A stretch of 64,000 nt of DNA from Escherichia coli (GTDB taxonomy: Bacteria > Pseudomonadota > Gammaproteobacteria > Enterobacterales > Enterobacteriaceae): the NCBI RefSeq assembly GCF_003334405.1, contig NZ_QOWM01000005.1. One strand, written 5' to 3'. Every line of letters starts with the position of its first letter. Position 1 is the stretch's first letter. The notes under the pieces are model-generated. The model had not been told where the DNA came from. It ran no database searches and saw only the letters and a list, made by a program, of their open reading frames with translations. Shown here piece after piece: positions 52,560 through 59,452 of the stretch. The position numbers and the translations under genes are program-made.

Positions 52560-54399
52560 CTTTCAGGGCTTTTATCGCCGGATGTAAATCAACAGATTGT
52601 AACAGACCACCCGGCGGCGTTTTCACAAGTTGCGGACATAACCGTTCCACGTCCGCCAGCAGGGTTATGGCCTGTGCCATTGACCACTGCGCATGTTCGC
52701 TCATCAGATTTCGTGCAATCCACTGCGCAATATTGCCAGGTTCGAATACGGACTGCTTCGCCAGGTAGCCTATCAGTTCAGGAATCAAGATTTGTAAATT
52801 TTGTTGGCGTAAGGGTAAAGGCACTGCCCTGATGGTCACATGCTGTGCATCTGACTGGAAATCAATACCCAATTCCGCTAGGGCAGACTGCGCTTTTTCT
52901 AATGCCGATTTTTCTTCGGCAGAAACTTTTAGCCGCAACGGAATCAGCAGCGGCTGGGCGCAAACGGGCGCTTCACCCGGCGTCAATTGTGCCTGACGCA
53001 GCCAACGTTCTGCCACTGGCAAGGATAAAAGTGAAATGTTGCCGTCGCGCTCCAGCAACGCACAGTCGGAATGGACGATAGTCAGTACCCGACCAAAACT
53101 CTGACTGTTCGCCGCAAGTGCAGGTTCCTGCGGTTCCGGCGCTTTTAATTTTTGCATCGGCGCGGGCGTTTGCAAAAGCTGGCGATACACTTCACCTTGC
53201 TGTTTCTGGTAGCCTGGCTGCGCATTCGGCCAGGGGGCAGCCGGACGACTGCCTGATGCTGGCGCAGGAGTGTAGCGCGGAGCTACCGGCTCACGAGCTG
53301 CCGGTTCTGCAAAGTGATTGCGCCCCGCCGCCACGCGGTTTTCCGGAATGGAACGCGGTGCAGGTTGGGGTTCATCGTCCAGCGGTAGCGGCGTTTCCAG
53401 TTGCTGTTGTAGCACGCTCAGCACGCCCTGATAGATAAAATCATGCACCAGACGCGACTGATGGAAACGCACTTCGTGTTTGGCGGGGTGCACGTTGACG
53501 TCCACCTGATGTGGGTCGATCTCCAGATACAACACAAATGCCGGTTGCTGATCGGCCCCCAGTTTGTCTTCGCAGGCCTGGCGGATCGCGTGATTGATCA
53601 GGCGATCGCGCATCATGCGACCGTTCACGTAGCAATACTGAATTTCTGCCAGTGCGGGCGTGGTGTGATTTGGATCGGCCACCCAGCCGCGTAGCGTGAG
53701 ATCGCCGTGTTGCCATTCAATCGCCAGCGCTTGTTCAAGAAAAGCGGTGCCGCAAATCGCGCCTAAGCGCCGTTCTTTTTGCCCGCCTTCCGGCACTGCG
53801 CGGTACTGACGCACAATTTTACCGTTATGCGACAGGTTGATCGTGACGTCGAAACGCGCCAGCGCAATGCGGCGGATGATCTCATCAATGTGGTTAAATT
53901 CGGTTTTCTCGGTGCGCAGGAATTTGCGCCGCGCCGGGGTGTTGTAGAACAGATCCAGCACCTCCAGCGTCGTCCCCACAGGATGCGCCGCCGGTTTTAC
54001 CGTCACGTTCATATCGCGCCCTTCGGCATAGGCCTGCCAGGCTTCCTGCTGTTCTGCGGTGCGTGAAGTGAGCGTCAGGCGGGAAACCGAACTGATACTC
54101 GCCAGCGCCTCACCGCGAAAGCCCAGGCTGATAATGGCTTCGAGATCGTCCAGAGAGGCGATTTTACTGGTGGCATGACGAGCCAGCGCCAGCGCCAGCT
54201 CATCTTTTTTGATACCGCAGCCGTTATCACGAATGCGGATAAGTTTCGCCCCACCGCGTTCGATATCAATATCGATACGCGTCGCACCTGCATCGAGGCT
54301 GTTTTCCACTAGTTCTTTGACTACCGACGCAGGTCGCTCGACCACCTCACCTGCGGCAATCTGGTTCGCCAGTTGTGGCGGTAAGACCTGAATTGGCAT
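52552..54399 (-). CDS. mutL: DNA mismatch repair protein MutL
   Basis: ATG (54399-54397) gives [38 protein letters not shown], 615 aa as recalled; track ORF begins one codon upstream at TTG. Confidence 0.95.
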
Positions 54400-54408
54400 C
54401 AATCGTCC

Positions 54409-55746
54409 TTAGTTTGGCAGCGTGCGATCTGGCGTCGTCACCGTACTGGCAGTTTGTGCCGTTGCACCCTGCGGCGCAGATTGCATCGGATGCGCAAGGA
54501 AGTAATTGCGCAGGCCTTTGTAAATGGCTTCTGCCAGCTGTTGTTGGTAATCGTCGCTCGCCAGCAAACGTTCTTCGCTGTTGTTGCTGATAAAACCGGT
54601 TTCGACCAGTACTGATGGGATATCCGGCGAGCGCAGAACGCCAAGGCTGGCGTGTTCTGGTCGACGTTTATGTATTTCGCCAATGCGTTGCAACTGACTG
54701 ATCATACTGGTCGCTACATCATACCCTACCCGCTGGGAATGACCGAACTGTAAATCCAGCACCGCCTGGCTTAAATAGGGGTCAGACTGACTGTTCGCCA
54801 GCACATCACCCGCCCCACCCAGCAGCTCCGACTGTTTCTCGTGCTGCTCCAGCCAGCTGGCCATTTCACTGTTGGCGCGACGGTTAGAGAGCACCCATAC
54901 GGAAGCGCCAGTCGCACTGCGGTTCGGTGCGGCATCAGCGTGAATCGACACGAGGAAATTGGCGTTTTGCTTACGTGCCACATCACTGCGCCCCATCACC
55001 GAGATAAAGTAATCCCCGTCACGGGTTAAAACGCCTTTAAACATCGGATCGTCATTGAGCAAAGTACGCAATTTACGCGCGATGGCGATGGTGACATTTT
55101 TCTCCCGCGTACCACCGGGGCCGATAGCGCCAGGGTCCTGACCGCCGTGTCCGGCATCAATAGCGATGATAATTTTATCGCCAGTGTTAGCCGTCGCGCG
55201 CGCTGCCGGACGCGTTACCGTATTACTGCTGATAACACCCGTAGTGCGGTTACTTTCCGTTTTAAACGGATTGCGCGCCGGTTCGCTGACGCGCGGTGCG
55301 ACAACCGCAGGCGTTTCAACGCGTTTCGCAACCACGGGCGGCGGAGGAGGCGGTGGCGGCACATCGGCGTTAATCGTAAAGACGACAGTGTAATTGCTGC
55401 CATTCTGCCGCTTCACCGCTTCGGTTTTACCGTTTTCGGTAAGATCGACCACCAGCCGTAGCGTTTGTGCATCTTTAGGCGTTCCAGAGCGAATCGCCTT
55501 CACCAGATTATTGCCGCTGAACAACAACGGCAGTCCCTGAATCACGCCCGTTTGTTTGATATCGAGCGCCACGGTGCGTTTGCTTTGATGGCTAAACGCA
55601 TAATCAGGATCGCCAATAAAACTCAACGTTATCCGCGCCTGTTGATTACCGTTAGAAACCTGAATATCAGAGAGCGTCGCGGCACCCACCGGCGTGCACA
55701 GCAGCAGCAGCGTCGCTACCAACCAATTTCTGATGCGATACATCAT
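54409..55746 (-). CDS. amiB: N-acetylmuramoyl-L-alanine amidase AmiB
   Basis: ATG (55746-55744) with AAGGTGG upstream gives [23 protein letters not shown], 445 aa as recalled; contains a poly-Pro linker. Confidence 0.93.
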
Positions 55747-55764
55747 CCCGCCACCTTTCAAAGG

Positions 55765-57743
<1,979 letters not shown>

Positions 57744-59152: not shown

Positions 59153-59228
<76 letters not shown>

Positions 59229-59264
59229 TTGGGTGGTCTGTGCTTTGCAGCACTTTTCAAATTT

Positions 59265-59340
<76 letters not shown>

Positions 59341-59376
59341 TTGGGTGGTCTGTGCTTTGCAGCACTTTTCAAATTT

Positions 59377-59452
<76 letters not shown>

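Follow-up and report, generated by a model that had tools for sequence, protein, structure and literature searches.

Why does AmiB, a cell-separation amidase of Escherichia coli, contain eight prolines in a row, and is the run there for the sake of the DNA, of translation or of the protein? The run is encoded on the minus strand at positions 55336-55359 of the window, by which we mean the whole 64,000-nucleotide stretch of DNA that was analysed. The plus strand reads GGGCGGCGGAGGAGGCGGTGGCGG over this interval, and its reverse complement, CCG CCA CCG CCT CCT CCG CCG CCC, gives PPPPPPPP in the frame of the minus-strand open reading frame 54409..55746, corresponding to Pro130-Pro137 of AmiB. Sequence and in-frame translation therefore agree with the original prediction that an eight-proline tract of AmiB is encoded here. 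The tract was also described as a GC-rich near-repeat and as a homo-codon run. The former description stands, with 87.5% G+C and a (CCN)8 near-repeat of 3-nt periodicity, but the latter does not, since the tract uses all four synonymous proline codons (CCG four times, CCT twice, CCA and CCC once each) and is not called by Tandem Repeats Finder, even at the lowest threshold (minimum score 30). The longest perfect tandem sub-repeat inside the tract has 2 units, and other repeat finders report nothing there either. Because the repeat finders are silent, a description of the tract as a true microsatellite was dropped.

The tract is far above what is expected by chance. The pattern (CCN)7CC has 1 match in the 64-kb window, to be compared with 0.00 expected from 100 dinucleotide-preserving shuffles, and across all six reading frames the window has no other run of more than four prolines. 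Analytically, about 2e-5 runs of eight prolines are expected per 1.35-Mb-residue proteome with 4.4% proline.

The surrounding gene, amiB (54409..55746, minus strand), encodes 445 amino acids plus a stop, and is identified from the list of open reading frames, an NCBIfam equivalog and its identity to K-12. The mechanical open reading frame reaches 55761, and the annotated start is the ATG of MMYRIRNW. Residues 1-445 align with positions 1-445 of the AmiB equivalog profile NF007751 at 977.4 bits (cutoff 532), and the DNA of the window is 100% identical to the amiB gene annotated in E. coli K-12 genomes. At its N-terminus AmiB carries a signal peptide that lacks a twin-arginine motif, and Sec exports the protein in the unfolded state. 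The neighbourhood tsaE - amiB - mutL is present, with the MutL reading frame downstream and, upstream, a P-loop reading frame that we take from its sequence to be TsaE/YjeE. Only 9 nt (TAAGGACGATTGATG; window 54399-54411) separate the stop codon of amiB from the ATG of mutL, and with so small a gap the translation of the two genes may be coupled. Elsewhere in the window there is a tandem array of three identical tRNA-Gly(GCC) genes that recur every 112 nt (59153-59452, minus strand), and Rfam matches above the gathering score are obtained for an RpsF leader (26691-26775, minus), the ES239 sRNA (6770-6892, minus) and the STnc450 sRNA (3361-3418, plus), with the ES036 (CssrF) sRNA (3239-3281, plus) barely past its threshold (39.3 versus 37.6 bits).

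Consider first the case where the nucleotides themselves matter. The tract could then be a contingency (phase-variable) repeat or an element acting at the nucleic-acid level, either as a G-rich structure of the template strand or through the antisense reading frame 55147-55461 (plus strand). Its base composition and periodicity are of the right kind, on the plus strand it is (GGN)8 with GGAGGAGG inside, and a mechanical antisense frame of 104 amino acids spans it. However, the (GGN)8 reading is a mechanical by-product of (CCN)8, and so is the antisense frame, which is what (CCN)n read backwards is expected to give: the plus-strand tract yields GGGGGGGG or an Arg-rich frame, with no evidence of a gene. 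A scan of positions 54300-55900 finds zero promoter-like sites, and in the same interval there is 1 weak terminator-like site, located upstream of amiB and below the shuffle expectation. The tract is without a regulatory DNA element. What remains to be considered for a contingency repeat is how the tract varies in length.

Length variation was part of the original prediction, and the tract is indeed not invariant: complete E. coli genomes have 5, 6, 7, 8 or 11 codons. The sample consists of 5,426 complete genomes, and a query of 200 nt with the tract at its centre matches every one of them. This fragment occurs at 5,429 places; two of these places are in plasmid records, and one genome or more carries the fragment twice. 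Alleles were counted with allele-specific queries of 191-209 nt in a band of at least 99% identity, which over about 200 nt excludes any 3-nt indel. The eight-codon run of this window is shared with K-12 and with O157-like strains, and occurs in about 4,520 genomes (about 83% of the 5,426), namely 3,478 of K-12 type and 482 of O157 type at 99% identity or above and some 560 that were assigned by subtraction only. Six codons occur in about 16% of the genomes, mostly in the Ser-interrupted form PPSPPP, which is seen as APPSPPPM in CFT073, ST131 EC958 and Nissle 1917 (691 genomes in the 99% band), while the plain form, APPPPPPV in SCU-301 and AF16, is found in 44 genomes, and about 110 six-codon genomes were again assigned by subtraction only. 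There are two seven-codon alleles, VPPPPPPPV in the AR_0369 group and APPPPPPPV in O145:H28, counted in 30 and 10 genomes and hence in at least 40; both are without the same first CCG codon, yet they lie in two different flanking backgrounds. The five-codon allele, VPPPPPV in E2348/69 and DCE7, occurs in at least 19 genomes, and the eleven-codon allele in 1, EC42405. The 864 genomes (16%) that are less than 95% identical to the K-12 allele are essentially the 5-, 6- and 11-codon classes. No allele of 9 or 10 codons appears in 160 evenly spread rows, which still allows a frequency below about 2%, and with the eleven-codon query no such allele scores above the eight-codon alleles. A genome recorded as E. 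coli O157:H7 TR01 (NZ_CP033605.1) carries the five-codon allele of E2348/69 type (99.5% over 191 nt) and not the eight-codon allele of O157 type, which suggests either recombination at the amiB locus or a labelling issue.

The alleles thus have tracts of 15, 18, 21, 24 and 33 nt, all of them in frame, amiB is annotated as intact in each allele retrieved, and every length variant retains at least PPP. The eleven-codon allele differs from the eight-codon allele of R32_14_1F, in the same background, by a clean 9-nt tandem duplication of CCGCCACCG. In this gain and loss of short units amiB resembles coding simple sequence repeats and contingency loci, but it differs from them in that the repeat is imperfect and escapes detection as a repeat, and in that its changes are slow, bound to lineages and never shift the frame, so that on/off switching of expression is absent. 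Judging from the genomes compared, the variation is a slow, lineage-bound population polymorphism and not a rapid repeat instability.

The conservation of the tract beyond E. coli tells apart constraints on nucleotides from constraints on amino acids. Within the 120 protein clusters that are closest, eight prolines are found in Shigella and in most Citrobacter, and the variants include P9, P7, P6AP and single interruptions by Leu or Ala. For a wider view, a degenerate DNA pattern for the end of the AMIN domain, YTVVFTI[NKD]AD, which demands no proline, was used as an anchor in a set with one genome per species. It matches 109 loci, whose record titles, a few of them unclassified or mislabelled, name more than 20 genera of Enterobacteriaceae, among them Escherichia, Citrobacter, Enterobacter, Klebsiella, Raoultella, Kluyvera, Buttiauxella, Kosakonia, Phytobacter, Cedecea, Siccibacter, Franconibacter, Lelliottia, Atlantibacter, Yokenella, Trabulsiella, Pluralibacter and Superficieibacter. 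Salmonella is not among the 109 matches, which, with an anchor that requires the exact peptide, is uninformative about its tract. Two of the matches are enterobacterial amiB genes in records with other names, one on a 1,060-nt contig of a 'Collinsella sp.' metagenome-assembled genome, with the PPSPPPM allele of E. coli B2 type, and one in 'Chryseobacterium sp. 18061'; in both cases the contig was most likely mis-binned or is a contaminant.

In essentially all 109 loci the anchor is followed by a run of prolines or by a segment rich in proline. The first uninterrupted run ranges from 1 to 11 prolines, with median 7 and mode 8 (35/109); it is 6-8 in 82/109 and at least 5 in 103/109. All four proline codons are mixed across these loci, and the longest run of a single codon is mostly 2-3. 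Codons are exchanged for synonyms and proline stays, from which it follows that what is constrained is the amino acid. Farther away the run is missing. Among representatives of clusters at 50% identity, 136/140 have a run of at most 3 prolines before the catalytic domain, and only the four closest have 4 or more. The run is absent from a Yersiniaceae AmiB (68% identity), from a Sodalis AmiB and from the more distant AmiB homologues examined, and in an alignment of 46 sequences the distant AMIN-domain amidases have, at the position of the tract, an unconserved linker rich in Pro, Ala and Ser. By these comparisons the polyproline run is specific to enterobacterial AmiB, and appears as a family-level trait of the Enterobacteriaceae that persists in the amino acids and not in the nucleotides, which drift. 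With prolines conserved and nucleotides not, and with length changes in frame only, a contingency locus or an element at the DNA or RNA level appears effectively excluded, and we assign such explanations almost no probability.

The same data bear on the possibility that the run is a low-complexity expansion without function, produced by slippage in a disordered linker, drifting in length and with nothing depending on it. Such neutrality would account for a run length that goes from 5 to 11 in E. coli and from 1 to 11 among species, for the absence of the run outside Enterobacteriaceae, and for the deletions of 25-31 amino acids and the duplication of 9 amino acids that the adjacent linker tolerates in natural isolates. 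It does not account for the fact that 109 species genomes share the position of the run and that its lengths have a peaked distribution, nor for codons that turn over freely among synonyms with proline kept. Furthermore, a motif that is costly to translate should erode when nothing depends on it, and overall selection against such motifs has been reported (PMC5811046). We consider neutral drift to be quite improbable.

The position of the run within the protein is given by the domains on its two sides. The AMIN domain (about residues 24-127; 55366..55677, minus strand) is an N-terminal beta-sandwich, delimited by Pfam, an AlphaFold2 model and the alignment of 46 homologues. The Pfam match (PF11741, residues 27-112, E=7.9e-4) stops after 88/101 model positions, and the true end of the domain is therefore further on. 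In the AlphaFold2 model, built with the 46 homologues, the AMIN strands extend from E24-32 through E118-127 at a pLDDT of about 90, and the tract begins three residues after the last of them, 118-127, which contains YTVVFTINA. At residues 131-140 the confidence of the model is falling and regular secondary structure is absent, across residues 136-188 the pLDDT is below 50, and from residue 192 the catalytic domain is again confident. This domain, Amidase_3 (residues 194-413; 54508..55167, minus strand), is found by Pfam (PF01520, E=4.3e-48) and by similarity to the structure 8c0j (E=5e-143), the sole solved structure of AmiB, which spans residues 190-422 only. The order of domains in the model is thus AMIN followed by Amidase_3, both confident, with a low-confidence linker between them. 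The linker (residues 128-191; 55174..55365, minus strand) contains 20% proline and is predicted to be disordered. That the tract lies between the N-terminal and the catalytic domain, as first proposed, is supported by Pfam and AlphaFold2 alike, but it does not constitute the linker as a whole: it is its first part, the first 8 of about 64 residues, or one eighth.

The remainder of the linker varies too. Rare AmiB proteins of 420 or 414 amino acids (P0006-P0017) in E. coli, Shigella sonnei and Shigella flexneri keep the eight prolines and miss 25 or 31 linker residues downstream of them (within 55174-55335), the sequence VVAP[RVSEP] being joined straight to [A]RATANTGDK. These losses apparently make up a second, larger length polymorphism of the linker, and from their occurrence follows that the geometry of the linker is not tightly fixed. 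In Escherichia whittamii the segment after a run of eight prolines is duplicated in tandem, an in-frame expansion of the same linker.

What do eight prolines mean for the ribosome that translates them? Three or more consecutive proline codons suffice to define a stall site that depends on EF-P, and the tract has eight. Early proteomic studies and in-vitro work reportedly counted AmiB among the proteins that depend on EF-P. In wild-type data the ribosome footprints have a peak at the eight prolines of AmiB, the longest proline run in E. coli (PMC4402525). The asymmetry score, given for each PPP window of amiB, is 1.0-1.24 in wild type and 1.0-2.9 in ΔefpL, and it is 6.7-10.5 in Δefp and 3.8-6.7 in Δefp overexpressing EfpL (PMC11611912 Supplementary Data 3B). 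Published profiling thus confirms the predicted EF-P-dependent stalling at the tract: the asymmetry increases 6- to 10-fold in Δefp and is partially rescued by overexpression of EfpL (PMC11611912), so that the stall is strong in the absence of EF-P and nearly resolved in its presence. There is no difference in kind between amiB, itself a published example, and other polyproline stall motifs (PPP/PPX); its run is simply the longest in K-12 (PMC4402525), and the amiB allele of the B2 lineage is shorter and interrupted (PPSPPP). We found no published ribosome profiling of this B2-lineage allele. The proline run of AmiB and its EF-P-dependent stalling are, in summary, already known, and the literature already uses the run as the extreme proline stall site of E. 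coli. In this respect the tract is ordinary and largely explained, and the present analysis adds little beyond confirmation.

When a stall is this strong, the run may have been selected for the pause itself, providing time for export targeting or for the handling of domains, or tying the output of AmiB to EF-P. This is the main rival to a role of the prolines in the protein. Polyproline motifs in E. coli are enriched just after the ends of domains, from -2 to +9 residues (PMC5811046), and the tract is at +3; the footprint peak in wild type (PMC4402525), the strong dependence on EF-P (PMC11611912) and the conservation of the run across Enterobacteriaceae are likewise what a programmed translational pause predicts. 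On the other hand, a wild-type asymmetry score of about 1.0-1.2 means that there is little net hold-up with EF-P present. Since three prolines suffice to stall a ribosome, a pause leaves the mode of eight unexplained, and distant AmiB homologues do without the run. An aid to the folding of AMIN in the cytoplasm is, furthermore, not to be expected for a protein with a signal peptide that lacks the twin-arginine motif and that passes unfolded through Sec. All in all, selection for the pause is an unlikely explanation.

The best explanation, and a probable one, is that the run is a polyproline spacer at the level of the protein, that the need for EF-P follows from its composition, and that the in-frame shifts in length stay within a tolerated range. 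The prolines would then most likely be kept for their role in AmiB, where the run lies right after AMIN, the domain that targets this periplasmic amidase to the septum, at the opening of a disordered linker. Eight residues of a polyproline-II segment at 3.1 Å each would make a stiff spacer of about 2.5 nm, which may keep the catalytic domain and its flexible linker at a distance from the AMIN domain; the stiffness is here inferred from the general chemistry of polyproline II. As the prolines are consecutive, the translation of the tract unavoidably needs EF-P. The imperfect (CCN)n tract would occasionally gain or lose 3-9 nt in frame, by slippage or by short tandem duplication, and selection would hold the run at about 5-9 prolines across Enterobacteriaceae. 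The start of the tract at +3 after the last AMIN strand, where the low-confidence linker opens, was counted in favour of this explanation, as were the conserved prolines, the in-frame alleles and the EF-P dependence. Counted against it were the homologues at 68% identity or less without the run, the tolerance in natural E. coli of lengths from 5 to 11 and of a Ser interruption, and the loss of 25-31 linker residues in rare E. coli and Shigella.

Proline-rich spacers are known from other proteins of the periplasm, such as the Glu-Pro/Lys-Pro region of TonB and the Ala-Pro hinge of OmpA, where proline alternates with another residue and the sequence is less prone to stalling. By analogy, the run of AmiB may be likened to them as an extended proline-rich segment between two modules of an envelope protein, with a length that varies between species. 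It differs from their alternating X-Pro pattern in that it is a pure homopolymer of about 8 prolines, followed by about 55 more disordered residues. The paralogue AmiC (PDB 4BIN) has the same order of domains, AMIN, linker and Amidase_3, and a homologous catalytic domain (E=7.5e-49); it is matched with AmiB over the catalytic domain only, and in one published motif table its sole diproline motif is PPA. At the position of the tract, the polyproline run is absent also from the distant AMIN-domain amidases of the 46-sequence alignment.

With a spacer as the preferred reading, the alleles may still differ in what they demand of the ribosome. According to one study, EF-P maintains the coupling between transcription and translation (PMC5021804). 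The stop codon of amiB lies 9 nt before mutL in the cluster amiB-mutL-miaA-hfq, and polarity from a stall in amiB is therefore conceivable. Run length and Ser interruption could then act as a tuning knob, with different alleles setting different degrees of EF-P dependence for amiB and, through stall polarity, affecting mutL, miaA and hfq. If this were true, a strong stall under EF-P limitation would uncouple transcription from translation and, by polarity, lower the expression of mutL, miaA and hfq. The cluster has internal promoters, which would blunt such polarity, and we regard the tuning knob as very improbable.

What is new concerns the natural history of the run. About one in six E. coli genomes, mainly of the B2/ExPEC lineage, has a shorter allele that in most cases is interrupted by Ser, and the alleles with 5, 6, 7, 8 and 11 proline codons form a natural series that can be used to relate the length of the run to its EF-P dependence or to the function of AmiB. 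Across the Enterobacteriaceae, the position of the run is conserved and its preferred length is close to 8, which argues that the prolines serve the protein and are no accident.
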